A DNA stretch of 62,550 nt, the filler included, from Asterionella formosa (Eukaryota), in assembly GCA_002256025.1 (NCBI GenBank). It is 9 parts of 9 records of this genome, joined end to end, with 100 filler letters (N's around TTAATTAATTAA, not from the genome) between each part and the next. Parts side by side here need not be neighbours in the genome. Positions count along the whole stretch, not along the records: positions 25,560 to 51,020 come from NKIB01001968.1; 8 more parts are not named here. One strand, written 5' to 3'. Position numbers and translations under genes: made by a program. This document shows, piece after piece, positions 11,561 to 60,906 of the stretch (positions are counted from its first letter, which is position 1; each line of letters starts with the position of its first letter). The notes under the pieces are model-generated. The model did no database searches, was not told where the DNA came from, and worked only from the letters and a program-made list of their open reading frames with translations.

Positions 11561-11729
11561 CCTGCACAGATATTTTCGAGTTTTTTTGGCAGGCGTACAC
11601 TCATGTATCTAGTGTTTTGCATGTACAAAGTAATCGCAAAATCGCAGCTTAATTTTCATATCAGAAGAAAAAAAGAGAATTACAGTACGTTACGTCACTT
11701 TGTCTATGTCTAGAAACTTAATGGTTGTT

Positions 11730-13443: not shown

Positions 13444-14503
13444 TCAACCCTAGCTTAGAGGTAGGGTTGAAAAAATAATATTGAGTCAGACTAATCAAAC
13501 AAATACTTTTCACGTCTAAACTAAATATGTATATCGCTACTCGGAGCTTTCACCATTGGACACCCTTTCCATATGCTTAGACACAGTCATTGATCGAAGT
13601 AGGGGTATACCGGTAGGTCAACTCCATACAACGTCAGTATTTAGGATCTGGCCAGAAACTGCAGAAAGGAATTTCGGTTTTTTAACCATGCTGAAAATAG
13701 TGGATTTTACCGGGCCAACTTGTTTATTGCCCTAGAAAAGAAACGAAGTTCCTTTCTGCAGTTTCTCGCCGAAAGTGAACTTCTGGGGCAATATGAAGAT
13801 TACCCATGTACTTATCTCTTCTTCAAACCCAGCCAACGTTGAGCTATCGTCACCCCAAAATTCGACAAAATCGGCCTTTTCAACGGTCTCCAAAATGTCG
13901 GAATCAGAATCACTAATCGCCGAGATGTCATCATCGGAATGGTAGTCTTGTGCTAAAATATTTAGTCTTAAAATCTCCTGAACAAAAAAATTCCAATATA
14001 CGTGCCAGCTTCACTATAAATATTTTGATTGGTCAGCTTCAATTACTTACCGATATTTGATTGGCAAGGTTTGCGAGGTCTTGCAAGCCCAGACCGGCCA
14101 CACTGGATACACGTTTAAAAATTTCTTGGATGATCGCCGGTACCCCGGTATGGTACCTGTTACCAGGTACCCTATCGACTACATTTGACACACGCGTACT
14201 ACTCCTATGAATAGAGTTCACTTCAAATATTTGCCGAGCCGCCAGGTCGTATGACACATTAACCGTCGATCGGTGTATAGAATGTATTCCGATATAGATA
14301 TAAAGATGTACAATCCATATCTATATAGTTACTGAATTAGAAAAGGAATCTATGCACGTACGCGCAAATTTCCAATGATTTGAATATTTCAAATGGAATC
14401 ATGTAGTCGTCTAAAAGTAGTTCATAAAAGTTCTTAGTTCCAGGGAATTTCGGCAACCCTAAGCAATATTTTAATTTTGCTTTAGGGTTGAAATGCAGGA
14501 ACC
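13444..14503. mobile_element. ~1.06-kb non-autonomous TIR element (MITE), copy 1
   Basis: Colinear diverged repeat of 23183-24265. Right end GGGTTGAAATGCAGGAACC followed by TTAA; it is the reverse complement of the left end of copy 2. Confidence 0.75.
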
Positions 14504-16248
14504 TTAATCAGTTCTGTATAGTAGAAGACCATACATTTATTGAGATCTAAGGCATTTTGACTCAAACACCTGCAACCTTCGCCAAAGTCAAACATTTGCA
14601 TTTTCCGGGTCGTTTTAGCCTGTTATTCCTATCATATACTGGTTGGTAAAACTTCTTTTCACACCCTGAATTTTAGGTCAAACCGACACCTAAAAAATGG
14701 TCGGTGTAAAATGTACACATGAGCATGACTTCTACCTTGGGCGGACCACACCCATCCATACCTAATACAGAAAGTACTGATAATACGTTGCATGGGGACA
14801 ATTATTGTCACCATGTACTATGATGCACACAATCAATTATGACTCACCATCACTTCATTTCAACCTCAACTAAACGATAGAATGTAGATGAAATGATTCA
14901 TGAATACTTAATAGCTAACTATTAGAAGTGTCAGTACTACTTGTTCTGTTGAAAATTGTTGACAACATTCAACAATGATGGCAGCATGATTCTTCGGTTG
15001 GGTGCTCGAACCAAATTCATTCCCTTGTTCATTTTAACAACTACTAGTAGCAGTTCATCAGCATCAAAATTTCAAAATCTGAAAGTTTCGATGTCAACAT
15101 TGTAGTCTTTAGCAGTAGATTTATCCATACTGCTAGCTAGTTTGAATAATCTTGCACATTGTGAGTTTAGCTTAATGCACTCTTAAATCGAGATGATAGC
15201 TGGCAATCAATTGGGCTTGAATTGGCGAAGAAAACAAAGAAGTATGACGCACTCTATACTAGGCATGGATGGTAAACAGAATAAATCAGACGACTACATA
15301 ATCAAACGAACATTTTCATGGCTGTTACGATATCTAATCATCACCATTCTATTTTAAAATCACATCCACGCATGCAACGAGCTGGCTTTTAGATTAGTGG
15401 TCGCATTACCAACATACTACAACCCAAAGTTCACTTACAATTTTGCTGCATACTAGCTAGTATTTCAGAGATTGACGAGACAGCATGGACTTCGGTTGAT
15501 TGCTGTCATAAGCGATCGTCGCTTTATACAAATGAGCACAGCCGTAGCTAGCAATGACAAAGGTGAGCTGTGGCAAACTGTAGACCGATCACATGGTTTC
15601 GTAAAATTTAATGTCAAGGACAACGAAAAGTTCATGCCGACAAGATTCTACAACACACTGGTACGAACTGACATATATGTAAGCGCATCCATCAGGTATG
15701 AGGTACCGGTACCAGGTACCAGCAAGTCGCGGTACCATCATGGGCAGTTCATTTAACCTAAAATTCCCCACCTTCTTTTTCAAGTTTCACCGACGTTTTA
15801 GTGGAGTCTCTCAACAAATGCCTATAGTTCTGTATGTTACTCCTTTCTTATTTTGAAAAATCGGTCACTAATTAATAACGGCAGGTCTTAAAAGAGATAC
15901 AAATAATAATTTTAATTATTAAATTGTATCTTCAGAAAAAATATCTCATTAATGGCAAAACAGTTAGCAGTTTTTTTCGTGTCTTCGCAAACATGTGCAT
16001 CAAACTCTCAAAACAGCAAAAAAATTAGCAATGCGCACTTCAATTATACAACCTGTCTGACCATCATTATTACAGAAACGACAATGACAAATCGACTGGA
16101 AGAAGTTACAGTTGGGCTGTCATCGACAATTTTGATTTAGAACAGGAAATAGAAGCAGAACAACAGAGTTTCTGTTTCTTGCAGTAGTTGCCTTATCATT
16201 TTTGGAGTCATACAATGCACAAAACTCAAAGCCAGTGTGATCAGCAAA

Positions 16249-16686
16249 ATGGGAGCATCAATGACTTGACTGGAATGATTATGTACCAAGAAAGCGTCTT
16301 TATGAGAATAAGTTTCATTTTGAATATCGCATGTCCCTTCAAGCTTTCAATCACCTACTGGAACTACTTTGACCTTCCATCACAGTTAATGCTGTCAAAT
16401 CCAATGCAAGTTCCGGTCTATACAGCACAAATCGGCATATCTATCCTGAGTTGATCCTTGCCATTGGCCTTCGCTGGCTTGCAGGCGGAAATCTCATGGA
16501 AATTCATCATGTCAACAGAGATTCTTATCTATCTGTTATGCAATTTCTAAAACATGGCTGTGAACTCTTGCCCAGCTCTATCTACTATTAAACTTCCAGC
16601 AACAAACAAGGAGAAACAAACAGAGGTGAATGGATTTCTTGGAAAAAGCGAGCAGCAACTATTTCGTGGATGCGTTGGTGCTATAC
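16249..16686 (+). pseudogene. Degraded PIF/Harbinger transposase fragment
   Basis: Translates to FEYRMSLQAFNHLLELL, PELILAIGLRWLAGGNLMEIHHV and FRGCVGAI, homologous to the ORF at 25560-26563. Contains stops and is truncated at GCVGAI. Confidence 0.75.
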
Positions 16687-17116
16687 CACAAAACTATTCA
16701 TTATTACTTTTGTGGATACTATAATTACCAGTACCAGCAACCCGGGTTTAGGTGCCCATCATATCAGTAGTTTTCCATACGGTATTCGTCATGAATTTGT
16801 TTGGACCTCGCATATCAATCTTTTCAAGTTCTCATCTGTACGATGGTCCTCCTCTGCTTGTTTCAACCCACTTCACTGGTAACAGGTGATTGCGGTGATT
16901 TTATGAAACTTTCTTGTATGCACTGTTTCAGGTTGCCTATACATACTATGTAAAAGGTGATGCCAGCTGAATGGAGGATTTTTAGATTTTTCATTCCATT
17001 TCTTGTTGACAGCAAACTTTGGGACTAAATACGGAAGTAACGCAGGCTAATTGATGTGTTCAAAGCAAGATAATTTTTTGTTAGTAACATTGCCTGAATA
17101 ATTATGTTTGTATCTA

Positions 17117-17943
17117 CTCCCTCTGTCCAATATCAGTTCCATCGATTTTTCAAATTTATCCGGGGCCATTTTGACTCATACGATTTCCTCCGGCTCAGTT
17201 GCCCTATTGTGTGGCTTGCTCTAAGCTCCTGAATCATTTATATTTATTTTATATATAGAAGGATTAAAATTGGCAACTACGTTTTAAACATCCTTTTTGG
17301 GCTTTTTCGATTTTCACTTATGGCTAGTCTATCTCGAGCAAAATGCAGATGCATGAGAACCCATTTTTCTTCGAACAATCTATTCTCACCATACGTGCAA
17401 AGTACTATTTAACAGTGGATCAATGGTAACTTGCGTTCAATTATAGATTGCGCAACCCCGAAAGTGGCGATGATGGAAGGGAAGAAAACGACGGTATCAT
17501 GCTCGTTTTGATAATTGTAGCCGTTAATCATCCGGCAATATGGTCCATGTAGATGCAACAACCGTAGAAAGGTAGAAAGCATATCCAAAAACTTTTTTCT
17601 ATATATATATATTATAATTATGATAGTGGCTTGATGTATTCGGTTTCCCGCAAATTTTGATTGGCCAGCCGATGTAAAACAGCATTTGGCGATATGTACA
17701 TGTATGCAATGAATTTGCGTATGTTAAATTGGTTTCAATTAATTTATTTATATGCTCATAATTTAATTACAGAAACCGAGTATATGTTCACATCTACTAT
17801 GTAACTAATAAAAACGCATTTTGTCAAGTAAGCCGACCCTCACGTAGAAAATTGGTATGTTGGCTACGTAATCCTTCATAAGCAAACAGTTAAGACACTA
17901 GTGGTGCCGGCAAATCAATGCAACTGTTGTTGGACTGAGGGAG
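17117..17943. mobile_element. Stowaway-like (Tc1/mariner-derived) MITE, 827 bp
   Basis: TA|CTCCCTCTGTCCAATATCAGTTCCATCGATTT ... AAATCAATGCAACTGTTGTTGGACTGAGGGAG|TA. ~32-bp imperfect TIR, TA TSD, AT-rich non-coding interior. Confidence 0.85.
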
Positions 17944-19998
17944 TAGCATATTTAGTCCAAAACGTGAATTTACTCGATTTAACATGGACTCTCGGTTCAA
18001 AATCTTCTAAACGTTGACTCTCAGCTTTTAGGTGGTACCCGGCTTTTAAGTGCCCGACCATAGCAGCTTATTACCGGCAGTATATTCATCAAGAATTCGT
18101 TAGGACCTCATATATCAATCACTCAAGTTCTCATCTATCTGGTGCTCCTTCTAATGTTTCAACTCATTTCACAAGTGATCGTGGTGATTTCGTGAAGAAA
18201 CTAATATTGACAACAAAAATTTAAGTCTCTGATAGATGTTGCATTTTTCTTCGGTGAAGAACTTTCTCAGGTTTTATACTTCATTATCCTGGACCCCCAA
18301 TGTACACTGCCATGACTGAATTCGACTGATTTTTCTTAAAAAAGAAATGTCAGCCTTGCAAGGGTGGAGATTCTACAATCGCCACACCAAAATTTCAGCA
18401 AGCAGACAAGGAAGGGTATACGGGGGCAGAGGGCAACCTATCTCTTCTCTGCATCCTGAAATAGGGGGTTTCTTAGGAGGTATGCTTTTGATAGACACCC
18501 TGATTTCCAGACATATACATCACATGGGATTGAGATACCAAAATATACATTAGATGTCTATCTCGATAATAAATGTTTATTGGCAAGGATTGACAGGTGG
18601 AGAGGCAAATTTGGCATTGGAGTATGATTTTTTACAGGCGGAGATGTACTTAAAAACCACAGAACAATGTTGCCCCTTAACTTCTGAAGCTGAATGCATT
18701 CTTGCTCACAATCCCTACATGATTTTTTCCTCTACTTAATGTCATAGTCAAAATTCAACAGGTCATTTCTGTTCCTATGAGGCATGCCTTGCATTCTTGC
18801 TTATTGTTCGAGGACAACGCTGGTGCTCTTGCTCGTGATCACAAGACTTCCATAGGTCATTACTGTTACTATGAGCGAGGCATACCTTGCATTCTTGCTC
18901 ATTGTTCGAAGACAAACTGGTGCGCGCTATTGCTCTTTCTTTTGCTTGATCACAAGAAGACTTGACTATGTACTAAATATGATTGTTTGAAGGACGATCA
19001 CTTCAGTTCACATTTCGCTTTGGGTTGCACATCAAACTTTTCCGTATTTCTACTTTTTATCAAATTACCACTACCAGTCATTACTTTCATCTATCTTGAG
19101 AAGAAAATAGTATATGTTGGTATTTTTCTGGTCATTCTGTCATTGATGCTTTTCTGCTTCTTCACAAGGGTGTAGGAGATAATTTATCCATGAAAAATTA
19201 TGATGTCACTTGTCATTGGCTTCTTCTTTTGTCCTTCAATTGTTTTATTGCATCCTATTTACAACTCGATATCAGCTGCCATCAGTTTTGGTTACTCTTT
19301 GAATTCAGTAGAGTCAACATAGTCAGACAAATCTTACTCATTATTTCTAGAGTTAACTTACTTTAGACTACTACAGTCATGTTTCTTAGATAGAGGCATA
19401 TATGTCACATATACTGGTGGCTTAGTGATCCAGCAAATCCTGCATCTTCTTATTCAATTCTGCAGTATACTGACAACCCCATCAAAAATCACTGACCACT
19501 GATTGATACTATATTATTGAGAGGATTATTATGATCAGATCATATGGGACTTACAATGCATGATGATTTCCCATTGGTAGCAAGCAGCCAGATTTTCGTG
19601 ATAATCAACAGTTCTAAACTGATAGCTCTGACATTGCAACAAGGGAAGGTTTTTGGCAGAACCACACATTCGGAGTCATTCCTAGCTTCAATTAAATGAT
19701 CAGCAGTTACACCACGGACAAAGAAAAAGCTAATGGGTCACAAACACAAGAATACAAATGATCTCACATCAAGGTTTACTTCAGTTTTGGTCCAGTTAAA
19801 TACCTATCAATTCAATACCTAGGATTCCTATCAATCCAATGATAACAACTACCATGATCTGCTTTCACTTGACAAATGAAATTAAATTATTTTATCTGGA
19901 TGACAACACTTGTGGTTGTAAGCATCGTCACTGTAACTTCATTGTATTTGTGACAATATATACATGCATGGTTTATCCAAAGTGATACAAAAGAGGGT

Positions 19999-21508
19999 TT
20001 AATGTGCTTGAGCACCCTCGTCATAGCCAAACAACATAATAGAAGATGGAGAGCGTGACAAGTGACCCTCATCATCATCCTTCATGCTAACAAACGTTCC
20101 AAGAGGGTTGAACTGATTGTTGACAATAACCTTTGAGAGACTTGCACGCAAGTGCTCATGAGAAATGTCTTCTTCATGATCAAAATGGTTGTCATCATAG
20201 TCATCATACATTTCTCCTTCATTGCAAGAATGTGAGAAGAAACACTGAGACACATCACCAAGTTGACGGGTTGATTTGGAAGGTGCATTAGCAACATCCA
20301 ATATATTGAGGCGCTCTTCAAAACTGTCTCTCCTGACCTGGTTCCCAATCATTGTTTCATTCACACCCTCACAATCTGGCCTGTTGATCAACAAGTCCTG
20401 CTCTGGAGCAGTCCCCATGAAAAAGTAGTTATAACCACATGCCTCAGTAGTCTTCACTGGCAACTCTGGATGCAGGTGGAAAGTAGCATACTGCTTCAAC
20501 AACGCAGCCTCCTCCAAGATCTTGTTGCGCTCCTCCATCTCTTCCAAAGAATCGTACTCAAGAGCAGAGGGACGGGAGAAGTAGTTGCGACCATATGCAT
20601 TAGCATCAGTAGTCTTGACAGGCAACTCTGGATGCAGGTGGAAAGTAGCATACTGCTTCAACAACGCAGCCTCCTGCAATACAAGCATGCGTTCCTCAGC
20701 CTCATCAAAGGTATCTTGTTCAGGAGCAGAAGCGCGAGTGAAGTAGTTACGACCACAAGCCATGAGGCCAGAGGCAACAACAGGTTTCTCAGGATGCAAA
20801 TGATACCGAGCATACTTTTTCAGCTCTGTCGCCTCTGCCAAGACCATCATGCGCTCCTCGGCCTCTTCACATGTGTCTTGTTCGGGAGCCGAGGCACGAG
20901 TGAAGTAGTTGCGACCACATGCATTAGCATCAGTAGTCTTGACAGGCAACTCTGGATGCAGGTGGAAAGTAGCATACTGCTTCAACAACGCAGCCTCCTG
21001 CAATACAAGCATGCGCTCCTCCATCTCTTCCAAAGAATCGTACTCAAGAGCAGAGGGACGGGAGAAGTAGTTGCGACCACATGCATTGCCGTTGCTCGTG
21101 ACAGGTGCTTCAGGGTGTAGATGAAAGGAAGCATACTGCTTGAGAAGCTGTGCATCCTTCAAGATCTCGCGACGTTCCTCCAAACCAGCGTTCAATTCTG
21201 AAAGGCGTGAAGTCAAGGTGTCAGAGAAGGGTTCCAGTAGATCGCATGCGAATTTTCAAGGTAAACGACAAGCACAATAACGACATCTTACCTTCATCCG
21301 ATTCATAGACGACAGAATCATCCAATTCCTCATCCTCAACCTCAAGGGTTGGTTCAATATCATCGATCACAACGGCGGATTGTTTGATGATTTCATGGGC
21401 GGATTTCCGTCCCCTCACGCATTGATTCACAGAAACTTCAAGCTTTTGAAGCTGCTCCTTGGCTGGAGCAATCTGGTTCTTGGCGTGAGAGGACTGTGCC
21501 GATCCCAT
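19999..21508 (-). CDS. Two-exon ~471-aa protein with five 54-aa tandem repeats (HLHPE.PV...ACGRNYF.R.SA) and an N-myristoylation-type start
   Basis: Exon 1 21508-21292 (MGSAQS...), intron 21291-21198 (GTAAG...CTGAC...TTTCAG, frame-preserving), exon 2 21197-19999. 162-bp DNA periodicity. Confidence 0.85.
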
Positions 21509-23182
21509 GTTAGATAGTTGTTGATGATTGCGGTTGGTTACTATTGACTTTTATTTCATTTGTTTTATGAGAGCAAGTTCTTGTCGTTCTGCCAGCCAAA
21601 GAACAACTGCATCATTTCGTAGAAACTCCATCCTTGTCAATTTTCGTCATACACAGAGTGTTGCGGCATTTTATTTGGCGACATTTTCAATCCGAACGCA
21701 CGGCTGAGAAAAAAACTGGAATCCTTCGTTATTGGATCGGATTGTTCCTGACAGTCATATAATGAGATACTTCATTGTTCGCATTTCAGTTGGTCAACCC
21801 TTGCCTTGATAGGATTCCTGTCAACTTGCTTTGCATTACTCCTATCGTAACCATCACGCACGTGCAGGTCTTGGATATTTAGACATGACATCTGCATTGT
21901 AAAAATATGTTTGATGCATAGTGTCAACCTGCAAGACCTATAGTGTCAAGGTCTCTGTAGAAGTAAATGCTCAAAATACTACCAAGTATTCATCGAGATA
22001 GATATTTAGATTATACAGTATTACGCCATGAATATAATCGAATGATGAAATCCAGACGGTCGCTGATTTCACATTTGACACAGACTTCTGATATAATTCT
22101 AAGAGTGTCAAGGCAACAACCAATCCCATGAGTTCCCACGAAGAACTGGAAATATATTACATCACCTTTTCCTAATCAGAACATTCCATTTTGCATACAA
22201 AGCCAAATTAGATTGAACGTGAATAGAAGGAATGTCGTAATAAATGCTGTTTGGATTCCAAAATCATGACAAGAAAGTTGTCAGTGTGCCTCGCAATCGA
22301 ATTATTGTTGAGAACAGGTCTCTCACAAAACAAATTCTTGAAACAAACAACGAGTTCATAGGAAAGCTCGATCCAATCTAGTCTAATCCTTCCCAAGTTT
22401 CCAAAAATGGCCGGCAAGAGCAAACAACAGAAAGAGGTGGAAGTCACCCTCAACAAGAAAGGTGAGCGAGCTGGCGCTGCTTTCTCGGTAAATGACAACT
22501 CTATGGCAGAACAAAAGCAAAGATTTCAAACGGATCTTTTAGAACAGAAGGATCCATAAATTTCGCTTGCCGTACTTACTTCTGTAATAATGTGCTCACT
22601 ATCACTTATCTCGTTCTGCAGATGCCAAGAAGGTTGCCAAGCTCGAAGCAATGATTCCTTACCACGCTGGAAGGGGACAAGTCGACGAAGTCTCGAAGAT
22701 TCAGGAGCAAATTGCCCAAATCTGGACCAAGACGCGAGAAGCTGCCTATGCAGTGTAACATCTTCCATTTTTAATTTGAATAATCAGGCGGTTATGTACT
22801 GTATCCAATTAGCTGCTTGTATTGTTCTGATAAGAAGCTGGCTCTATAGCACCGACATGCGGCTCCTTCCGAATTCTATAGAAATTATTCATTTGCACAT
22901 CTTTCCGGGTCGTTTTGAAAGTGGTGTATCGTACTGTCCATACCAGGGTACCTGGTGCCGTAGTAGAAATGCAGAATACATCACTATCGATTAACAATGG
23001 ACCACCGGTATGGGTTCTGAATATACCGGTTGTAGGCGAACTTGGTTGAGGAAGCTCGTTCGCATCCCTGTTTCTATGGATGGTTATACCAGGGACCTTG
23101 TACAATACCTATGCAAGCAAGTTGCGGTAAATGTGGTAAATCTAAAACTTTAGCTATCTTTATCCGATATCAAATTGTTCAA

Positions 23183-24265
23183 GGTTCCTGCATTTGAACC
23201 CCTGGCTCGAGGTAGGGTTAAAATAAAATATTGTGTCAGATTAATCAAAAACGTATTTTTCACCGAAAAAAATATATAACGCTCACCGGAGCTTTCATCA
23301 TTAGTCACCTTTGTCATACGTATGCTTACATACAGTCCTCGGACAAAATAGGGGTGCACAGGGGTGCCGGTAGGTTTACCATAAATATTGTCAGTCAGGA
23401 TAAAGGATCTGGCGAGAAAGTGCATAAAGGAACTTCGGTTTTCTAACTATGCTAAAAAGAGTAGAAAATTCGGGGGAAATCTGATTATGGAATAGTAAAT
23501 TAGCGAAGTTCCTTTCTTAACTTTCTCGCTGGAAGATCTATACTGATACTATTTGAAGGTTACCTACTATATATCTAAATCCCCTTCAGACCCAGGCGAT
23601 GTTGAGCTATCATCTTCCAAAAATTCGACAAAATCGGCAATTTCTATGGTCAAGATGACTATTTGCCAAAACATCATCATCGGAATGGTAGTCTTGTGCT
23701 ACAACGTTTAGTTGCAAAATCTGTTATGCAAAAAAATCCATTGTAAGGGCCCGCTGCATTATTTATGTTCTGATTGGTCATACTCACATTTGTTTGATTG
23801 GCCTGGCTGGTGTGCGCGGTCTTGCAATCCCACACCAGCCACACTGGATACACATGCAACATTTTCTTGGATGGTGTTGGTCGATGCTATCATATCCACG
23901 ACCTGCTGGTACTACCTAGCAAAGAGTAGGATTACCAGAGTATCTGGTACCAGGCATCTTGCGGGTACCGTTAAAGTAAGCAGACCAGAACATTTCTAGA
24001 ATGCACTTTCAAATATTTTTCCAAGATGCTGGGTCATAGATGTGACATATATTTGTTCTTGATCTGAGTATACTACAACCGCTAAAGTAGCTATATGTAC
24101 ATTCAGTGATGAATAATCTAATTGTATATATTTAGGGCATTTGGGAAGGAATCTATGTATTTGTGCGCAAATTTCCACTGATTTAAATATTTCAAACAGA
24201 ATCATTGATATTCAAATTAGTAGCGAATAAAAGTTCTTAGTTACAGGGACAAATTTCGGCAACCT
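23183..24265. mobile_element. MITE copy 2 (same family as 13444-14503)
   Basis: Left TIR GGTTCCTGCATTTGAACCC. Shared internal blocks, e.g. AAAATTCGACAAAATCGGC and CATCATCGGAATGGTAGTCTTGTGCTA. Right end truncated. Confidence 0.75.
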
Positions 24266-24869
24266 CTATGAAACAGTTTGTTGTTGCATATGCTTCTTTG
24301 CTGCTGTAAACAATGTTGCTGTGATGTAAAAAAATTGCAGTTCAATGAATTAGGCCAATTCTAGATCATGACAAGAAGAAAGCCAGTGTGGGGCATTTCT
24401 GTTGTTCTATCCCACCAAAATGCGTGTTCAATAGTGAAGATTCCATTCTAAAAGAGCAGCATTGATTGTTTGTTATGTGAAACAGTTGAAAAAGTCCTCA
24501 ACTTCATTATTTGATAGAACTTTTGAAATAGTAAGTTGAAAAAAGCTTTTCAATTTCTCGAATGACCTTCAGAATATTAGTTGAATGACCTTCAGTAAAT
24601 TATGTAAGTGAAATTATAGAATTATGTGAACAGAATTGAAGAGGTTACATGAACCAAATCATTCATGCTATTGATGGGTATTAACAGCCGATCACCACTC
24701 AGCATCCAAATCACAGTATGAAACTGATTTGGTGTGACCCAAAATGAGTGGCAAAATGTCACAGCTGCATACATGGGTTATAATGAAAAACACATGCCCT
24801 CACCATGGGAGTGTTTTTGACCCCAAATGGGAGGAACCGCAGGGAGGGAAAGAATAGCAATTAAGGGTA

Positions 24870-25459
24870 CCACTTAAAAACTGTAAGCCACCGCTAAACG
24901 GAGTAAACGCACGGTTTGAACTTATTTTACAAGATACGCTATTTATTGTCACGAACGAGTTGTTCAGATTTATATAGCGAGTAAATACTTCCGTACTTGT
25001 GTTGTTGCATTGTGTACATTGTTAATTAGGTATTATCGCCCAAAGGTTGCTGTCGACGTGAAATTGCGAAAATTGGATATTTTCACGTTTACTCGATTGA
25101 GCAAGCATCACCTTTTATATACGTATCCAGCTATGACAATATTCCTCCGCTAGAAAACTAATTTAGTATCCTCTAAAATTTATTTAATATGGCTACGACG
25201 TCATTGCGCTTTCGCTCGTGCGCCATAATAAAGAGATAAATTCACTAATGGAAAACGTCAAATAGGAATTCCTGGCGCGCCCGAATTATGAGTACAAAAA
25301 TTAAATGCAAACACACAACAGTCACCCATCACCCATCACAATACCAACATCATGACCTCGAAAGCGCCTCGACAAGGCAATGTCTTGCCTCGAAAGAAAT
25401 TGTCTCCTGAAGAGTTGGTCAGTGTTCAGATTTGTCTTAACAATGTGATTAGGGAGCTA
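24870..25459 (+). mobile_element. Left end of a pogo/Tc1-mariner-like element with the transposase N-terminus (MTSKAPRQ..., ATG 25352), contig-truncated
   Basis: Begins TA|CCACTTAAAAACTGTAAGCCACC. Near-identical to 50306-51020 but with a different flank. Confidence 0.7.
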
Positions 25460-25559
25460 NNNNNNNNNNNNNNNNNNNNNNNNNNNNNNNNNNNNNNNNN
25501 NNNTTAATTAATTAANNNNNNNNNNNNNNNNNNNNNNNNNNNNNNNNNNNNNNNNNNNN
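25460..25559. other. Artificial contig linker (N44-TTAATTAATTAA-N44); also at 51021, 52669, 54317, 55965, 57613, 59260 and 60907
   Basis: Identical 100-bp spacers with stops in all six frames. Flanked contigs measure 25459, 25461, 1548 (x4), 1547 (x2) and 1544 bp. Confidence 0.97.
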
Positions 25560-26857
25560 TTTTTTTTCAGAACACACCATTTTGTCTGAAGAAGACCAAA
25601 TGCCATTTCTATTCTTATCCTTAGCTGTGAAAGGAAAAAGTTAAATGTATCCTGTGTTGGATCATCACGTTGTGAGCCAACAAAGGGAACAAGCATTACA
25701 TCAGACAATGTGTAAGCTGCATCGCCGACCAGATAAAAACCTGTGTTGAATGCTGCAACTTGATCGAAAATGGAAGTTTTTTCAAAAGCTACTTGGTCAC
25801 TGCATTTTCCCGGTGCAATTACACCAAAATAAATAAATCTTGAGTCAGCATCACAAACAGCCTGGACATTGATTCCATAAGTCATGTAGTGACCGGAAAA
25901 AAATGAACCAGGGTTGTTGCCACTTTCAACTATAGTCGGGCGGTTGATGGTGGCAAGGAAGCCGTCAATAGCACCAACACATCCTCTCATCACGCCCTCT
26001 GAGCTTTTGCATTCAAAGCTGGAAGCCAATTTGATAAATTCTTCTTTTTCTTTTGGAAAAATAATTTCGAGTTCTTCACAGTTTAGTACAGCATCAATGA
26101 ACAAATCACGACATCGATAAAGTGAAGCAATGCTACAACCGTAGGCATGACGAATGTCGATGTAACTGCCACCAGCCAGCCATCGCAAACCAATGGCTAC
26201 CACAATTTCGGGAATTATGGGCTCAGAAGTGCCACATTTGGAATAATTCCCTGCAATCTGAATTTCCAGCATGGAGGTGAGTTTTTTGAATGCTCTGTGT
26301 GACATTCTGTATGTCTTCTCGAAAGCAATCTCGTGATTGAGTTTCTCGACATGTGATTGCCAGGAGATTCTTTCGTGGTGCCACTTGTGCCTTCGTTGTC
26401 GTCGTCGTTCAGATGACTGAAGCTGCCGTTTACAGCGTCGCCTTTGTCGTTTGGATGAGTGTTCTTTTTCCTCTGCTTCCTTAGTTAAATGACAGAGGAA
26501 GAAGAAATCAAGATCACTACTGTCATCGTCATTATCATCAAGTAAATCAAATGGCGACGACATGATTCATGCAAATGTGTGTTTTTAATATTATATTTAG
26601 TTTCCCGGTAATTATATTTTGTTGTTGCTTGATATCAAGACCATCATTATATTCTGGAGGGATATACACATGATCTTCGCCAGCCTGTTGCCGTTGAAGA
26701 TTCATTTTACTCCATGATACAATGTGATCACAAATTAGTGATACAGTGACACTTTTGGAATGAATGAAATTCAGTTCAAATCGAGTTACCGTTGCTGATA
26801 CATTTTCAAAAAAATTCAAATTCCGTGATACACGAAAAAAAATGATAAGAACGACCC
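25560..26857 (-). mobile_element. PIF/Harbinger element, copy 1, with open DDE_Tnp_4 transposase (26563 to contig end)
   Basis: Motifs LRWLAGG, GCVGAIDG, INVQAVCD, YLVGDAAY, RIRIEMAFG. Terminus AATGATAAGAACGACCC|TTA (TWA target). TGATAC subterminal repeats. Confidence 0.9.
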
Positions 26858-27164
26858 TTATGATATCATAGGTTTCGGAGGGAGTTAACATACCGGTTTT
26901 ATCATTGCTTCTTTGACACAATACCGTATGTATTATTACAGTATGAAGTATAGGGAGCATAACTTTCGCTCCGACAAAAGAACAATCATAAATACACACT
27001 CCACGACCGAGACAAGCGCGGTTCTTCCTGTAGTAACTTATCACATACAATAGTTCTTTATTTCGTTGCCTACGAACCGAAGTACCGGAATCATCATTAT
27101 TCCCTGATTTCTGTTATACTATATATGGCAGTACCATCGAATCTCCCTCGAATACCTTTCCGTA

Positions 27165-28286: not shown

Positions 28287-30813
28287 CGAGTTTTTCGTTT
28301 TAGAGAAGTGCATGCTTCTCGATCCAATCTGTCGTTCTTTCACTGAGTGCAAATGCATCCATGACCCTTTTCATCATTACTGTGCACATAAATCTGGTAT
28401 CTGTCCCAAGTACTGCCGTTCTCTGTCCTGCAATGATACAGCTGTGCACATAAATGATTAATGTTTTCTGTACTTACTGTTAAGTGATTTACTATGAATG
28501 CTTTCTTTTGGTAACGATGAGTAGCAGTACAACGCTCTTGGTCTAGGAGTCCCAGTTTTCAACATTACAACTTGACAACATCCAACCATTCCATACATGT
28601 TTATGAGGTATATTTGGACATGTTACAACTTAGTACTGAGTGGCCTTGGTCCTCATCGGTGAAGGAGTGATTTTCATTTTGCACTTTTCCCTTAACTTCC
28701 AAATATTAAAATAGTGTAGTTACATTAGTTAGTAGCTACATAAAGTTTGCCATAGACTATGCCAGGGACCAAACTCATCTGTCCTGCATGCTGTCTACTG
28801 GTATTATACATATTTACTATTACTGGTACCTGGTAGTAGCAGGTATCTCAAGCAACCTTTTGTGCTTCAAATGTTCGTTGATAAAATGGGCAATTGAAAG
28901 TCATTGTAAAAACAATCCTAAACAGTCTTTTGTTTTCTTAGCTAAATAAAAATTGTTTTCATGATGCCAATCGACTGAAGCGAAATGAGGGTTTGATTGC
29001 TGCATTTCGATTTTCAATTTCTTCATCTTTCTGAGAATCTTGGCAGAATTCCAGACTTACGCTTGTCAAGCATAAGTCTGGAATGCTGCCAAGATTTGCT
29101 GAACTACAAAGAAGAAGACGAAAATCGCAAAGCGTGTATTTCGGAGATTCATCACACATATGTCTTTTTGTAGAAACCTTTGTTGGTTTTTTCTCCCTAT
29201 GATCACAACACAGTAACATAAAGTACTATAGGCATCTGTTGAGAGGCTCCACTAAAACTAAAATGAAACTCGGAAAAGAAGTTTTACCTATTGGAAAAAC
29301 AGGTGAAAACAGCCCGGAAAATACAAACATTTGACTGCGGCAAAGGTTGGATGTGATGCCTTGCGCTCCAACTCGACGTGGCAGTGGCAACCCGAAAGTC
29401 ACAGGAAATTTGAGTCACGATTTATATTCTGGAGCGGTAAGCAATGGCCTCACCATGAGAAAACTCCTGATCATGTTGTGGACCACAATAAGCGATCAAT
29501 TTAAGTGTAATTTAAGTGTTACTAATTATTATTTTAGCAGGAAAGTCGGTTTTGCAGTCGCTAGCTATTTTCGTTCTGCCTACCCAGAGCGAACCCCGAG
29601 TCCGCGCACACCACGTATTTGATGCCGCACATACTTTTTGATTTCTTTCTTCTAGAGTACGGAGTACATACCGTTATACCGTTACCTGGCATGGTAGGAG
29701 TACCTTTTACTGGTAAGCACGTATGTTTTATAGCCTCTAACATCCGTTACCTCGTACTCCCTCACCGTGGTACCGGCTGCACTATCATTAGGGAGTCCAC
29801 TGCTGTCCTGCGCTCTTTGTTTCTTCTTCATAGCAAATGTATGTGAGCTATATGTAAGATACAAATACAATGAGGTCGCTGGCTCGTCCCAGCCATTTTG
29901 TGTTCTTTTGCTTTATACTCGTATTCATAAATTTTGTAAATTCCTTTTAAGTTGTCTGGCAGGCGTGTTCCCGCTCGTTTTAAGGCGGTACCGGTAATCA
30001 AATGTTATACACAGGTACCGGCATATCAGCAAAAAATATACAGGTATGGGATGAGTGATCATGTCAAGGTCACGAAGGATACGAAATTTTTCGAAGGAAC
30101 TGTCGATGGGGACAAATTGAATCATGAAGACAAGGTACCAGGTACCTTTTACATACTATGTATACCTGGTAGTCCCCTGGTATCAGGGTACCACCCTGGC
30201 CCTGGCACCGTTAAATAGCTAAGACCGGTAGACTACCTGGTACCAGGTACCAGGTCCTTGTATGACATAGCAACACAATCTTAAATTTATTCATTTTAGA
30301 ATAAAATATATAATTCAAAAGTGTCTGCAAGTAAATACGGTTGACGGTCAACCTCGATTTTCAAATGATACATGACCGCCAAAAGTAGCCAACATGTAGC
30401 ACGAGCCAGAAATGTCATTATCCGTCCTGCTTTCATCAGCAGCTAACGCTTGATGATGTCGTTATTTTTAGCTTTCGCCACTTACATGTTGTTTTATTCG
30501 AGCCGTTTACCAGTCTCATCGTTGAACATGCAGTTTTTTCAATGTTCACAAGGTCTGATCATAAATATTCGTATTTTGTTATAAATAATAATATACGTGC
30601 ATACGTGATAATAACCGCAACCTTGTCTTCGAATTTCGTTATTGACACTCTTTGACCCTCATGAATGAGTGAATGAATAGCTCTGTCCAACATTGCTGCA
30701 TTGCATTTAGAACATCTTGCTCGACTTCTTTCTGGGAGACGTTGTATTGTGTCTGAGCCCTCACTGTCGAGTTCGGTCCGATCGCCAAACAACGCCAACG
30801 TCAACACGTCAAC

Positions 30814-36787: not shown

Positions 36788-39277
36788 ATCATTGCTTCGT
36801 TCGTGTCATGATGCTATTCAGGACCTTTAATAGTCCCTTTTGCATGAGAACGCACCTTCCAGTTATATGCAAATGATCTATTCATGCATGGATAAAATAA
36901 AGCGCAAAACAAACAACAAGATCAGCCATACATAGCAAACTGCTTGGTGACAGGGCCTACCGGTACATCTTCCGGTATATGGACACTCCTAAATTGGCGA
37001 CATAGGAAGGAAGTACCGGTACCGGTTTCAATAAATCATGTCCCAGAGTAGTTGAAACACGTAGAGATTCCTGATTCCAGATCAGGTTATGATAGTGTCA
37101 ATATTTTTCCATCTCTAATGACATGATTAGGAACATGTACTACAATCTACTTGATGATTGATTCAAGGAAACATGGTTAAATATCGTGTGTAAAATGCCA
37201 CAGTTAAAACAGGAACCTTTCAGGAGAAGTTCTCTCTAACCTTTTGAATGGACTCTAGAGGGCAATCATACCTAGAGGCCAAACCAATAAATAATTGACT
37301 AGACAATTACAGATATGTCCATAAACTCAAGGAACATTAAAGAAGCAAACTAGATATGATCTAATTATGATTAACAGGATCATTCTGTAAGTAGTCTTCA
37401 ATCAAACAGCATCTGGCCTAGCTACTAAGTTGAGATACTAGCTAGGTCAAGATGAGACATGTGTATTTAGGAAGAGGATGTAGTTTATTCTCAGTTCAAG
37501 TTGGGAACACAAATGAACCTTGCCTCCAAAGATCACATCTATTTTGAAGCATGCATGATCTTGGAAGTTTCAAAATTATACTTTCAAATTTACATTTACA
37601 TTATGCTTGCTCACTCCTCCTCTTTCATAAAAGCAACTATTAGCTAGTAGCAAACAAAGTAAACAAACCAATTGTGTAGAAACAATTGTTCTAAAAATTT
37701 TTACTGTCTGAGAGCTACAGATTTGTAGCATCTACCATCTTACAGGAATCATCAGGAGTGCATTTGCCAATGTGCGATGGTACCAATGACAAGTACATCA
37801 ACACATTATCCTATGATGTAAATTCTTTCATTATATATCTATCTTAACATGATGGTAATTCTGATCCAAATCACAGTTGAAAAAACTTGAAATGGATTGT
37901 ACTTTTACTCTTATATCTGGAAATGATATTGATGTTTCTATCTTCTGTGCTGCGGTAACGCAATGTTCCCCTTTTCTCTTGTCTCAATGCTCTTGATGCA
38001 TGCCTCACGCCTCCCGCCCCTTCTATGCTCTTGATTTATGCCTCCCAACTCCCTTTCACTATGATTCTGAAACTTGTCTTGCTGACAATCCCCTTTCATT
38101 TGCTCCGATTCTGAATTCATATGCGCTGTCTAATGTTTTATCCATTTTGAATTCCTTATTATAATAACAATGAGCAGGAATTACTCACTAGCCATGGGAT
38201 GCCCGAGCATTGAACTCCTCGTTGGAGTTGCTCTTGCCTAACAGATTCAATGTTGCCTTGCCAGTGGAGCTGTTGCTCAATTGTTATTTGGGAATGCTTT
38301 GAGGTTGTCTTCTGCGCAAAAACTGTAGGACCCCTTGGGTAGTGTACGCCAGCAGCATTCGAAATCAATTATAGTAATCATGAAAAAATATACATAAATG
38401 GATGAACAAAAGATAGAACTAGATCCTACGGGAGTTCTGCAGTGGAGTGTACCACAACGTGAGATCCGAAATTGGTCAGGGTGCCTCGAGAAAAATGTAA
38501 GTACAGTCCAGCAGCAACCAGAAGGTCCGGTAAAACACGTTTTTCCTTAGAAAAGATAATGCTAAATATCTCGAACACCGGACCTTCCCAGGACACTGAA
38601 GTACGGTACCGTGTATTGCAATCGCATTAACGGAAACGGTTACGGCATATTCATCCTGTGCCGGCGGTACCGGTAGATCATTACCAGGTACCGTATTCCT
38701 GGTCGTACCAGGGAATTCAACTAAGTGCATACCGGTAACGTTACCATCAGTTACCTTCGTTACTACATAACGGGTACCGGTAAACCTGCTGGTACTACCG
38801 ATACACGTACCTGGTAGTCAACCGGCATGTACTGTATACCAGTATTTCTTCCTTTTGTCATGACATCAAGCATGCCCTGTGGTACCAGTTACTTCGTCCC
38901 AGAGGATCTAATTCAAAGACAGGGTACAGGTAGGCAACTAGCTGTTTAAAAAGGTTAAGTTAGAAATCAAAGCTTACTTTGGTTTTCTATGTCGTCGAGT
39001 TCACCGCACAGATCTCTGTTCCGTACTTAATGCAAAACCAGTTGTTCCCTCAGAGGCACCATAGACTACTAAAATATGTATATCATAATTAGCACCTCAT
39101 CACACCTTTGCACCAACTAACATTTGACTACTGGTGGCTAAATCGTGAAACTTATTATTGTGAATCGCAAATGTACTTTATCATACATGCACACGTCAAA
39201 TGTTTTGGCTTTAATAATACTCCGAGTATCATTGCCGCTGTATACTTGATCGGTTAATCAACCATGCAATTCGACGT

Positions 39278-40619: not shown

Positions 40620-41254
40620 AGTACCCTGTATTGGCAATTTTTGGTACATTCTTTTCAACCAGTCATCAAAATCCAGGCATACCTTGTATTGGTGGGCGTT
40701 GCAACATTTTCCAATACAAGGTATTGGTCATTTGATTTTTTTCAATACAAGGTGATATATCATTCTAATACAAGGTTCTCCTTGTATTGGAAAAAGGTCA
40801 GTATGATGTCAAGAACAACAAATACTTGTTGCCAATGTTCCGGGATTCAGGGACAAGATTGCACCAACAAGGATGATGTCAAGTCCAATACAAGGTGAAA
40901 ACATATCCAGGTATCACTCCAATTCAAGAAGGTGTTCCTTTATTTGTCATGAGAATATCATCCAATACACGGTATTCCCTGTATTGGGCTCAGTTTATTT
41001 CTCAATACAAGGTGACAACATTTTGCAATTCAAGGTTGCCCTTGTTCTTGTATTGGGTTTTGGCTGCACTTCATTATGTCCCAATACAACAAGGTCATGA
41101 GTTCCGATACAAAGTGACAACATTTTCCAATTCAAGGTTTCCCCTGTATTGGGTTTTGGCAGTATTATGTCTCATCCCAATACAAGGTCATAAGTCCCAA
41201 TACAAGGTGACAATATTGTGCAATTCAAGGTTGACCCTGTATTGGTCTATAGTG
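40620..41254. repeat. Degenerate array of CCAATACAAGG/CCTTGTATTGG motifs in both orientations, ending in TAGTG (CACTA-like subterminal region)
   Basis: About 20 imperfect copies of the 11-mer or its reverse complement. The right end reads CACTATAGACCAATACAGGG on the minus strand. Confidence 0.65.
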
Positions 41255-43127: not shown

Positions 43128-44320
43128 ATGTCGGCTTTCCGCTCATCTCATGATGATAAGCATGATGATATAATCATCACATCATTGCTACTGCTAGCAG
43201 CATGTGATCTAGCAAACAAGACGCCATATTTCAATGACAGTTTGACTGTTGACGAGGTCAGAAGAAGAAGTGGCAAAATCAGGCGCAAGGCACTGCAGCA
43301 TCAATTTTCAAATTTTCAAGTCCATTCTTGACTTTGTTCTCTCATCACATTTTATGGGTTCAACCACCATGCTTCTTTCAAGCTCCTACACCATCTATTC
43401 AAGCCCTGTTTTGATTCCTTTACTCCCTGTCATAGGAAGTATACAGATTTCATTGTTAGAAGTTCAACAAAAAAAGGGTCAGCCCACCAGATTCCTCAGT
43501 TCCATCAGTTGTCTGGCGCTTGGGATAGCATGGCCCAGGACTCGTGGTTCCTATATGATTCTTCAAATAATTTTCGGTTTAACTCATGGTTCCTTGAGTG
43601 TTTGGTTGAGGTTTTCAAGGCGAATGATTGTAAAAGTGCTGTTGACAAATGAAGATGCCATTGTGAGACTGCCTACAGCAGACGAAGACACCTTGTTTGC
43701 AACAATGATCAATCAGAAAAACCCAATTATAAAAATTGTTGGCGAGATGGATGGACTAAAAATGACTCTGCAACGAGCTGGAAATGAAACACAGCAGAAC
43801 AATGCATTTGTACAATAGATGAACTCATGAACACTATGTGACAAACTTGTTTCCTTTTTCGCCTGATGGAAAAATTCGCTGTTCTTATTTCAATACACCT
43901 GGAGTTCTCCATGACTCCACCATGGCAATTTGTTCATCGATCAATGATCAAATTGAAATGATTTAGAGGGATACAGATAAAAAGTGGTTATGGATCCAGC
44001 ATTTTCATCTAAGAAATCAAATGCAATGCTGAAATCCCATCAAAATACTAACGTAAATGCAAATGGTAATCCTCAACAAAGTTTGGGTATAAACCGTCAA
44101 GCAACTTCAGTCAGACAGTTGTCCAAATGGTGAATGCGATGTCTTCAGGGATCTTTTCCTAGGAAGAAAGACAAATTTCTTTATGAAGATAGAGGTGAAA
44201 TAAACTAATCCTGCAAATGATTGTGTTGCTTTACAATTTTCGGGCAAGTTAAGTCGGTCAGAATCAAATTGCTTCTGTTTACATGCACTATTTGCATAGA
44301 AGAGCTAAAAGATATGCATT
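43128..44320 (+). pseudogene. Degraded Harbinger-type DDE transposase (family 2)
   Basis: Close to the open 59900-60906 copy (RTRGSYMILQIIFGLTHGSLSVWLRFSRRM) but with frameshifts and stops. Confidence 0.85.
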
Positions 44321-44350
44321 TTATTCTTTGATTTAATTGATTTAAAAAAA

Positions 44351-49819: not shown

Positions 49820-50305
49820 CCTGTGCTTGGCGAAGAATTAAGTTAACTACCGGTATGTATGGGACCTTGAGAACAATTTCCTTTTTATATGTGACTAAAA
49901 TTGATGTGAAAAGAGATGATACGCAGAAATATAATATTTGAGAACAAGGTAATAAAAATAAAGTATGACGATGAATCAATCGTCTTCGGCTCGATTGACG
50001 ATGTCTCGTTCTGCACTCCTATTTTTTTATTGCATATCCGGTATTCGGAGTACTGGTACCCTGGTACTATGAAACCGCGGCATGAAAAATACTTACCGGT
50101 ACACAGTACCTGGTACTGGTAAATGGAGTACTAGTAAGTGGGGTCGTGTGGATGGTGTAACAATATGTTTCTAGTGCGTATGCTAGTAAATGGACTGTAC
50201 CTACCAGGAACCACGTTGAACACCACGTAGCACAATGTACATTCCTATTAAATTACCTTATCATGCATAGTATACCGTACTCCTCTTGCTTTCTAATTTA
50301 CGATA

Positions 50306-51020
50306 CCACTTAAAAACTGTAAGCCACCGCTACGGCCACTTTTGAACTGTAAGCCACCGCTAAACGGAGTAAACGCACGGTTTGAACTTATTTTACAAGA
50401 TACGCTATTTATTGTCACGAACGAGTTGTTCAGATTTATATAGCGAGTAAATACTTCCGTACTTGTATTGTTGCATTGTGTACATTGTTAATTAGGTATT
50501 ATCGCCCAAAGGTTGCTGTCGACGTGAAATTGCGAAAATTGGATATTTTCACGTTTACCGGTACTCGATTGAGCAAGCATCACCTTTTATATACGTATTC
50601 AGCTATGAGAATATTCCTCCGCTAGAAAACTAATTTAGTATCCTCTAAAATTTATTTAATATGGCTACGACGTCATTGCGCTTTCGCTCGTGCGCCATAA
50701 TAAAGAGATAAATTCACTAATGGAAAACGTCAAATAGGAATTCCTGGCGCGCCCGAATTATGAGTACAAAAATTAAATGCAAACACACAACAGTCACCCA
50801 TCACCCATCACAATACCAACATCATGACCTCGAAAGCGCCTCGACAAGGCAATGTCTTGCCTCGAAAGAAATTGTCTCCTGAAGAGTTGGTCAGTGTTCA
50901 GATTTGTCTTAACAATGTGATTAGGGAGCTAGAAGCTAAGAAGGCTAACAATGGTGGAAAAATGCCTTATGGTGCTATTTCTAGGACAGTATCAGCTAAG
51001 CAATGCATTTTCCCTTGGAT
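50306..51020 (+). mobile_element. Second left end of the pogo/Tc1-mariner-like element (ORF from 50824), contig-truncated
   Basis: TA|CCACTTAAAAACTGTAAGCC terminus with an extra subterminal repeat unit. ORF MTSKAPRQ...NGGKMPYGAISRTVS...FPW. Confidence 0.7.
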
Positions 51021-51246
51021 NNNNNNNNNNNNNNNNNNNNNNNNNNNNNNNNNNNNNNNNNNNNTTAATTAATTAANNNNNNNNNNNNNNNNNNNNNNNN
51101 NNNNNNNNNNNNNNNNNNNNCCTATGCATGTAGAGAATAGATGGTTCGAAGAAAAATGGCTCTCATCATTTTGCTTGCTCGACAAGATACAGTGCGTACC
51201 GGTAGATGGCAAAATATGGTGGACGTAGTAAACATTATTGCGTTAA

Positions 51247-52668
51247 GGGCCGTTCTTATCATTCTGTTATTTGTTGTCATTGGTGTATCATCGCCGAAAT
51301 ATGATACAAAAATGGCGGTTTGGTTTTTTTTTGTGTATCACCAACGGTTTTTTTGGTCTGATCACCGGTGTATCATGGGTGTATCACTGATACAGTTTTT
51401 GGACCCCTGACCAATGCTGTATCACTGATCAAGCCGTTGATCACTGTGTATCACGTCCGTTGCCACTGATAAAATAACTGTAAATACGCAAGCACAACAC
51501 TATTAAATATTGCGCCAACTATTTTTTGTTATATATATACTACGGTACTCTGTATACATTACCTTTCAGCTTCGTGAGTCATACAAGAATCAGTAGTCCG
51601 CTCATCTCTATACCAATCTTCCGACATCGACTATATCTCGATTAATTGGCGCAATGAGCAGCAAAGTAGTGGGTACGGCTGAAACTTCTGATGCTAAAGG
51701 GAACAAGCATTACATCAGACAATGTGTAAGCTGCATCGCCGACCAGATAAAAACCTGTGTTGAATGCTGCAACTTGATCGAAAATGGAAGTTTTTTCAAA
51801 AGCTACTTGGTCACTGCATTTTCCCGGTGCAATTACACCAAAATAAATAAATCTTGAGTCAGCATCACAAACAGCCTGGACATTGATTCCATAAGTCATG
51901 TAGTGACCGGAAAAAAATGAACCAGGGTTGTTGCCACTTTCAACTATAGTCGGGCGGTTGATGGTGGCAAGGAAGCCGTCAATAGCACCAACACATCCTC
52001 TCATCATGCCCTCTGAGCTTTTGCATTCAAAGCTGGAAGCCAATTTGATAAATTCTTCTTATTCTTTTGGAAAAATAATTTCGAGTTCTTCACAGTTTAG
52101 TACAGCATCAATGAACAAATCACGACATCGATAAAGTGAAGCAATGCTACAACCGTAGGCATGACGAATGTCGATGTAACTGCCACCAGCCAGCCATCGC
52201 AAACCAATGGCTACCACAATTTCGGGAATTATGGGCTCAGAAGTGCCACATTTGGAATAATTCCCTGCAATCTGAATTTCCAGCATGGAGGTGAGTTTTT
52301 TGAATGCTCTGTGTGACATTCTGTATGTCTTCTCGAAAGCAATCTCGTGATTGAGTTTCTCGACATGTGATTGCCAGGAGATTCTTTCGTGGTGCCACTT
52401 GTGCCTTCGTTGTCGTCGTCGTTCAGATGACTGAAGCTGCCGTTTACAGCGTCGCCTTTGTCGTTTGGATGAGTGTTCTTTTTCCTCTGCTTCCTTAGCT
52501 AAATGACAGAGGAAGAAGAAATCAAGATCACTACTGTCATCGTCATTATCATCAAGTAAATCAAATGGCGACGACATGATTCATGCAAATGTGTGTTTTT
52601 AATATTATATTTAGTTTCCCGGTAATTATATTTTGTTGTTGCTTGATATCAAGACCATCATTATATTC
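51247..52668 (-). mobile_element. Harbinger family 1, copy 2: internally deleted, transposase with a premature stop
   Basis: TAA|GGGCCGTTCTTATCATT TIR matches the 26857 end. Transposase nearly identical to copy 1 but AAA>TAA at 52059-52061, and homology ends at ~51696. Confidence 0.9.
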
Positions 52669-55827: not shown

Positions 55828-55839
55828 TACCAGGTACTA

Positions 55840-55964
55840 CCGTATACTTCATTGTCCTGGACCCCCCAATGTACACTGCCGTGACTGAATTTGACTGATT
55901 TTACTTAAGGGGGGCCCAGGACAATGAAGAGATTTCCCTTATAATGGACCTAAGTAAATTTCTT
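55840..55964. mobile_element. Terminus of the TA|CCGTATAC element (same family as 1-125)
   Basis: Exact reverse complement of 1-125, preceded by TA. Confidence 0.65.
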
Positions 55965-59822: not shown

Positions 59823-59899
59823 CAACCTTAAATTAATTCATTCTAATATAATGTGAAAGAAGTGCTGCTAAATAATCATGAAGGAATAATTTCTTTGAA

Positions 59900-60906
59900 T
59901 TACATGGCATATCTATTTGCATTCCTATGCAAATAGGGCATATGCACAGAAGCAATTTGGTTCTGACCAACTTTGCTAGCACGAAAGTTGTAGAGCAATA
60001 CAATCATTTGGAGAATTAATTTTCTCTCACCTTTTTCTTTATAACGAAATTTGTCTTTGATTCTCGGAAATGATCCCTGAAGGCATCGCATTCCCCATTC
60101 CGACAGCTGTCGGATGGAGGTGGCTTGGCGATTCATACCAAATCTTTGTCGAGGATTACCATTTGCATCAACATTGTTTTGATGTGATTTCAACATTGCA
60201 TTTGATTTCATAGATGCAAATGCTGAATCCACAACTACTTTTTTGCCTGTATCGCTGTAAACTGTTTCAATCTGATCATAGATCGATGACCAAATTGCCA
60301 TGGTGGAGTCATGTAGAACACCAGGTGCATCGAAATATGAGCAGCGAATTTTTCCATCAGGCGAAAAAAGAAACAAGTTTGTCACATAGTGTTCATGGGT
60401 CCATCCATTGTAGAAGTTGTTCTGCTGTGTTTCATTTCCAGCCCGTTGCAGGGTCAGTTTCAGACCATCCATTGCTCCCCAACAATTTGTTATAAGTGGG
60501 TATTTCTGATTGATCATGGTTGCAAACAAGGTGGCTTCGTCTACAGTAGGCAGTCTCACAACGGCATCTTCATGTGTCAGCAGTACTTTTACAATCATTC
60601 GCCTTGAAAACCTCAACCAAACACTCAAAGAACCATGAGTTAATCCGAAAATAATCTGAAGAATCATATAGGAACCACGAGTCCTGGTCCATGCTAACCC
60701 AAGCGCTAGACAACTGATGGAACAGAGGTATCTTTGCCGACCTTTCTTTGTTGTTGAATTTCTAACAATGAAATCCGTATTTTTCCTACAGGGAGTGAAG
60801 GAATAAAAACAAGGTTTGAACAGCTGGTGTAGGAGCTCGAAAGAAGCATGGTCAAACCCACACAAGGTAATCAGAGCATCATCATGCTTGCTGTTGAACA
60901 AAGTCC
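59900..60906 (-). CDS. Harbinger-type DDE_Tnp_4 transposase (family 2), open frame, 5'-truncated
   Basis: CWGAMDGLK, FYNGWTHEHYV, FSPDG, PG..HDS, VVDSAF, RQLSEWGMR.LQGSFPR. Confidence 0.9.

Follow-up and report, generated by a model that had tools for sequence, protein, structure and literature searches.

Positions 50304 to 51020 of the window (the whole stretch of 62,550 nucleotides of Asterionella formosa DNA analysed here) carry the left part of a CCACTT transposon on the plus strand (copy 2): a TA dinucleotide is followed by the left inverted repeat with an inner direct repeat, a leader and the start of a transposase frame, which has its ATG near 50829 and runs into the contig end. Copy 2 is 98% identical to two loci from public metagenome contigs (L018 and L029), and the same transposon is found a second time in the window at 24868 to 25459 (plus strand, copy 1), where TA and left end again run into a contig end. 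Both copies begin with TA-CCACTTAAAAACTGTAAGCCACC behind unrelated flanks; inside the left end ACTGTAAGCCACCGCTA is present as a direct repeat, and copy 1 has lost 30 bases between the repeats. BLAST aligned 24870–25459 with 50336–50931 at 98.0% identity over 596 columns with one gap, which global alignment identified as the six bases TACCGG at 50556; the same alignment gave the 30-base indel at the terminus, between the two direct repeats, as a second difference. The preliminary description had drawn attention to this TA site, and re-reading and aligning the sequence confirmed the difference: copy 1 reads gtttactcg at 25087–25095 (GTT-TA-CTCG, with the unoccupied TA at 25090–25091), whereas copy 2 reads gtttaccggtactcg at 50553–50567 (GTT-TACCGGTA-CTCG, with TACCGGTA at 50556–50563). 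The leader that received the insertion is non-coding and separates the inverted repeat from the ATG.

The window consists of nine contigs joined by N44-TTAATTAATTAA-N44 linkers and is not continuous DNA: there are 16 runs of 44 Ns, paired around TTAATTAATTAA, and the linkers mark joins at 25460–25559, 51021–51120 and six more places. Homologues of the proteins encoded in the window are named from Fragilaria, Seminavis, Fragilariopsis and Cylindrotheca. A Methyltransf_32 gene lies at 298–2079 on the minus strand; the public protein P0124 is near-identical to its product and differs by codon-repeat indels in poly-Asn and poly-Ala, showing that strains ordinarily vary by 3 and 6 bases within coding sequence. 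When contigs of four sequencing runs were aligned to positions 1–20000, where the listed rows were dominated by high-copy repeats, long pieces differed by 6 or 18 gap letters: these totals were discarded as footprint evidence, because P0124 reveals ordinary codon-repeat indels in the same stretch.

Public metagenome contigs were scanned with the shared terminus of copies 1 and 2, which returned 30 loci: 19 of these are true relatives that share sequence beyond the pattern, and the remaining 11 resemble chance matches. TA stands directly before CCAC in all 19 true relatives. The leader site was compared across five copies, with the plain TA (GTT-TA-CTCG) found in copy 1, L002, L018 and L029 and TACCGGTA found in copy 2 only. 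The 5' flanks of copies 1 and 2, which both end at contig boundaries, differ, and the two copies are therefore separate insertions and not alleles; L002, L018 and L029 likewise have different flanks. Substitutions common to copies 1 and 2 are absent from the outside copies, which makes copy 1 the sister of copy 2 and L002, L018 and L029 their outgroups. As four of five copies are without the six bases, including the sister and all three outgroups, the insertion is derived in copy 2 and does not reflect a deletion in copy 1, and the polarity on which the preliminary description relied was thereby upheld.

Both ends of the transposon are contained in L018+L019 and in L029+L030: the elements so delimited measure 3761 and 3773 bases, have TA on each side and the 27-base inverted repeat CCACTTAAAAACTGTAAGCCACCGCTA at both ends, and carry one long frame each, of about 945 codons. 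In L019 (2521–2560, reverse strand view) two CCACTT transposons lie end to end with TA-CCTGG-TA alone as spacer. The left flank of L029 (1–86) contains sequencing-adapter-like letters and is unfit as a genomic flank.

The protein of about 945 amino acids encoded by this frame is without a match in Pfam: the models DDE_1, DDE_3, Transposase_1 and HTH_Tnp_Tc5 detected none of 30 family members at E ≤ 1, and neither the protein nor the family profile found a sequence match among solved structures (PDB). There are at least 313 relatives in public proteins; the 120 listed of these have no precomputed Pfam domain, any name among them is 'hypothetical protein', and two are from Fragilaria crotonensis. 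One near-identical cluster holds 93 member sequences. Three aspartates are invariant in the 30 aligned members, D219 (FVDEVGSN), D368 (LLLDGHGSRF) and D406 (WQVGDS), with DD37D spacing. The AlphaFold2 model computed on the 30-member alignment has a mean pLDDT of 82.4 and contains a long helical C-terminal extension; every one of the best 11 Foldseek matches is to Mos1, Sleeping Beauty or SETMAR/Metnase, with no E below 7e-3, and VIA-align to those 11 gave Z 11.6–13.1 and rmsd 3.2–4.1 over 191–251 residues, approximately the whole catalytic domain of the target, with retroviral integrases reaching Z ≤ 10.4 over about 130–143 residues. There was no pogo catalytic-domain structure among the listed structural matches, and in a protein-language-model atlas the ten best named clusters were all DDE_1 (pogo/Tigger), with scores up to 0.95.

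Because curated sequence models fail, the superfamily placement rests on the fold, the triad, the TA duplication and the inverted repeats, and on this basis, together with the language-model features, our reading is that the element belongs to the Tc1/mariner/pogo superfamily, from whose other members it has diverged widely. With Mos1, Sleeping Beauty and SETMAR/Metnase it has in common the TA target duplication, terminal inverted repeats with an inner direct repeat and the fold of the catalytic domain, and with Tc1/mariner/pogo proteins in general the three invariant aspartates of the predicted DD37D triad and DDE_1-like language-model features; it differs from them in its length of about 945 amino acids, in the helical C-terminal extension and in the absence of a match to any curated sequence model or, by sequence, to a solved structure. 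Judging from the predicted intact DD37D protein and the cluster of 93 members, the CCACTT family is apparently autonomous and recently active.

A second polarised insertion was found within an element that we term X1, which was detected by a systematic search for TA-CC...GG-TA inverted ends. X1 (13319–18037, plus strand) is a TA-flanked element of 4719 bases that belongs to a related CCACCT family: it begins with TA-CCACCTAAAAACTGAGAGTC, ends with the near-perfect complement, has TA on both sides, and its ends match at 19 of 20 positions as an inverted repeat. X1 has no recognisable transposase, with Pfam searches of its ORFs remaining empty, and contains nested repeats. Its left arm reads CAAG-TACCGGTA-CGAAC, with TACCGGTA at 13411–13418, and the relatives L006 and L015 read CAAG-TA-CGAAC, giving a clean 6-base gap; the more distant relatives L013 and L022 align ambiguously at this site. 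Among the nested repeats, a Stowaway-like short element with ends CTACTCCCTCTGTCC lies at 17114–17946 and is skipped by contigs of three runs, whose joint has 2 letters in common and marks an empty site; a high-copy element lies at 13458–14478, whose full ends TTAAGGTTCCTGCATTTGAACCCCTAGG, taken from the loose ends of aligned run contigs, begin with TTAA and which has a 63–72% alike relative at 23170–24268.

The preliminary description had called for short indels between paralogous copies to be tabulated, with an excess of TA-duplicating insertions expected, and on the small scale covered here the spectrum is thin, a point against the excision reading: two TA to TACCGGTA events, at 50556 and at 13411, were found among 42 indels. 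Of the 31 indels between window repeat pairs one is a TA-duplicating CCGG insertion; X1 versus L006 gave one such event among 4 indels, and neither the 3 internal indels that separate the two full transposon copies nor the 4 found at right ends are of this type.

Of all 8-mers in the window TACCGGTA is the most frequent, with 24 occurrences in 62.5 kb versus 0.26–1.24 expected from Markov models of order 1–3, and the 28 occurrences of TACC(A/T)GGTA divide into 15 of TACCAGGTA (0.11–0.41 expected from the same models) and 13 of TACCTGGTA (0.11–0.36 expected). As TACCAGGTA and TACCTGGTA are mutual reverse complements, two products are to be distinguished, a 6-base and a 7-base insertion. TACC(C/G)GGTA is absent from the window, and this restriction of the centre to A or T agrees with the termini, all of which, as far as seen, have A in third place (CCA...TGG). 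Enrichment extends to trimmed variants, with 15 occurrences of TACCAGTA/TACTGGTA versus approximately 2.2 expected and 13 of TACCGTA/TACGGTA versus approximately 4.4; the untrimmed product TACCATGGTA does not occur in the window, so that a 3-base stagger requires a constant overlap or trimming. As far as their sequences indicate, the main and trimmed products look like a repair spectrum and not like a fixed inserted unit. Sites are concentrated in clusters: 2531–2682 (6 units, including TA-CCAGG-TA-CCGG-TA-CCTGG-TA), 11734–12161 (13 units, the largest cluster, including two triple arrays), the intergenic stretches 29989–30249 and 38668–38816 (5 units each), and a double unit TA-CCGG-TA-CCAGG-TA inside X1 (15704–15718). 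Every array splits into TA-CC(W)GG-TA units with only A or T as the centre, and the suggestion that these are the building blocks of the palindromic clusters has thus proved accurate. In the fetched contigs, 20 motifs occur in the 47.7 kb of the 19 family loci versus none in the 37.4 kb of the 11 chance-match loci, which served as a control.

The ends of the elements are found at particular TA sites. GG-TA precedes 15 of 20 independent ends versus 7% of all TA in the window (binomial p about 5e-14), where the 20 ends comprise 16 distinct flanks among the fetched loci, including that of L029 with its adjoining adapter-like letters, and four in the window. An exact TACCWGGTA shares its TA with the element in 7 of the 16 fetched ends. 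On the simplest reading of these sequences, the family appears to prefer GG-TA-CC targets and scars appear to attract new insertions: given such a preference, scars would be hot spots and would hence stack. Alternatively, scars could arise in situ beside resident elements by another route.

It had also been proposed that two TA-flanked families with termini beginning in CC are present, and this was fully confirmed for CCACTT but only partially for CCGTAT. A short element with the terminus TA-CCGTATACTTCATTGTCC lies at 55838–55964 on the plus strand, a single base away from a TACCAGGTA unit. Self-comparison of the window by BLAST identified 1–127 as the exact reverse complement of these 127 bases, an identity that is an assembly-graph overlap and no biological repeat pair. 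TA precedes the CCGTAT terminus at three different flanks (127, minus; 55838, plus; 11813, minus), but the copy at 18278 is without the CCG and a matching second end was not found; support for this family is only partial. The same contigs harbour a PIF/Harbinger element (DDE_Tnp_4) at 25560–26862 and 51236–52668, with ends GGGCCGTTCTTATCA and TAA/TTA flanks: its transposase, at 25562–26566, adjoins copy 1, and the element copy at 51236 is internally deleted. PIF/Harbinger elements are also cut-and-paste DNA transposons, but these ends and flanks are unlike those of the CCACTT element, and this transposase was rejected as the scar source on the grounds of its GGGCCG ends, its TAA/TTA flanks and the lack of a CC terminus at TA. 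A second Harbinger pair, 85% alike, lies at 43366–44326 and 59897–60852. Further repeats are a 2782-base high-copy element with inverted ends CGTCTGTAAATAAAAAATATCAT at 6329–9110, which contigs skip in four of four runs (an empty site), and about 14 copies of the 10–11-mer CCTTGTATTGG and its complement at 40620–41250, in both orientations and in hairpin-like pairs; the latter were dismissed as a further TA-CC family, having no TA flanks.

The six bases TACCGG at 50556 are probably a scar, left by repair after the excision of a Tc1/mariner/pogo-type cut-and-paste transposon. The interpretation as an excision scar, put forward in the preliminary description, is supported by the polarity, the CCA termini, the TA flanks, the A/T centre and the second event at 13411; the excision itself, the positions of the cuts and the route of repair are what we infer from these. 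A TA-flanked element with ends 5'-CCA...TGG-3' would have inserted into the leader TA of copy 2 and later have been excised: on the non-transferred strand, the transposase would cut within the element, at a distance of two or three bases from each end, leaving CC or CCA as a 3' overhang on each TA flank, and end joining would yield TA-CC-GG-TA or, where the terminal A's of both overhangs oppose one another, TA-CC(A/T)GG-TA. Every such scar would create a second TA flanked by GG/CC, and with a preference for GG-TA-CC the scars would be hit again and would stack into GGTACC arrays. As a wider proposal, which we put forward tentatively and would not yet bet on, this family with a Tc1/mariner-type fold that sequence databases do not recognise would integrate preferentially into its own scar GG-TA-CC, every round of insertion and excision adding a further TA-CC(W)GG unit, in a self-reinforcing ratchet that writes GGTACC arrays into diatom promoters and that may feed promoter palindromes such as the TACCGGTA of Phytophthora.

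Several other origins can be set against the excision scar. Quite unlikely, in our estimate, is that TACC(W)GGTA is a cis-regulatory palindrome maintained by selection in promoters, with the indels at 50556 and 13411 being incidental gains of a site. Nearly all motif sites do lie in intergenic, promoter-like DNA: frames of at least 150 codons make up 41% of the window and hold 14 of the 52 sites, 13 of them in a single Pfam-less frame that is built of stop-free arrays, and the sole site in a recognised gene, at 1677 in the methyltransferase, is of the frame-preserving 6-base type and falls, as a Thr-Gly insertion, in a length-variable loop where one 99%-identical relative also has TG. On the excision reading the same distribution counts in favour, as the trace of a selection filter on scars. 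In promoters of another stramenopile, Phytophthora infestans, the identical 8-mer TACCGGTA (M94) and TACATGTA (M93) are high-confidence motifs that are over-represented and read as transcription factor sites, with no link to transposons drawn in the accessible part of that work (PMC3597505). Selection nevertheless leaves unexplained why each gain comes with an exact TA duplication, why the centre is A/T or absent and trimmed variants are enriched, and why two gains lie in the non-coding arms of transposons and transposon ends abut the motif; a regulatory function may have followed an origin as a footprint. Very unlikely, too, is that inserted TA-flanked elements disappeared when hairpins or microhomology led to deletions between their inverted ends, without excision by a transposase: the elements do have long inverted repeats, but such a process should leave variable terminal bases where two stereotyped products dominate, and the predicted intact DD37D protein and the near-identical 93-sequence cluster fit recent activity.

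The stacked tracts call for the same scrutiny. To regard the GGTACC tracts as a microsatellite-like expansion of a 6–7-base unit by slippage, with the single sites as seeds or remnants, seems highly improbable to us: tandem head-to-tail units do occur, and TACCTGGTA stands three times in succession in L018, but adjacent units of the window are alike in only 1 of 9 pairs (0.36 expected by random draw), 6- and 7-base lengths and both orientations are mixed within arrays, and of 43 runs, 37 consist of one unit only, in contexts unrelated to one another. Slippage is therefore no explanation for the arrays, and it also leaves the TA duplication at the naive sites 50556 and 13411 unexplained. Least credible of all is that the assembly or sequencing of a single metagenome contig went wrong here, for which speak the short-read nature of the contigs, the position of both copies at contig ends within a repeat and the adapter-like letters in one fetched flank; against it, the motif recurs at 52 sites in the window and, in independent assemblies, at 20 sites in 19 loci, the second event at 13411 lies in a unique context, and no such error would imitate a duplicated TA combined with the terminal bases of the element.

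A duplicated TA around two or three terminal bases is the textbook excision footprint of Tc1/mariner transposons, with that of Tc1 being TA-CA-TG-TA; the M93 motif equals this footprint. The scars described here share with Tc1/mariner footprints the duplicated TA around two or three terminal bases and the minor trimmed variants, but differ from those of canonical systems in that they form the commonest 8-mer, are stacked and have element ends in or beside earlier scars. In case of Sleeping Beauty, the canonical footprints contain 'cag' or 'ctg' between duplicated TAs, i.e. TA-C(A/T)G-TA (PMC5224488): the scars resemble these in that the central base is either A or T, which is what two 3' overhangs opposite each other should produce, and differ from both Sleeping Beauty and Tc1 footprints in their terminal bases, CC(A). 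The mechanism is thus known; what sets the present case apart is that no sequence model recognises the transposase family, that the scars are so dense and stack up, and that the elements apparently target their own scars. A literature search, conducted mostly outside subscription journals, found no published description of this phenomenon, the nearest being the Phytophthora infestans study (PMC3597505). To judge by M93 and M94, similar scars may be present in the promoters of oomycetes.

With its defined ends and predicted catalytic triad, the CCACTT family is a candidate native transposon tool for diatoms, and experiments on excision and target choice are directly feasible with it. If the reading as excision scars is true, transposon excision would be a major source of short insertions in the intergenic DNA of this diatom, and would generate its most frequent 8-mer as well as whole GGTACC tracts. 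As scars would then account for the commonest 8-mer, motif and promoter studies in stramenopiles could mistake them for evolved binding sites; alternatively, evolution may have turned scars into binding sites.
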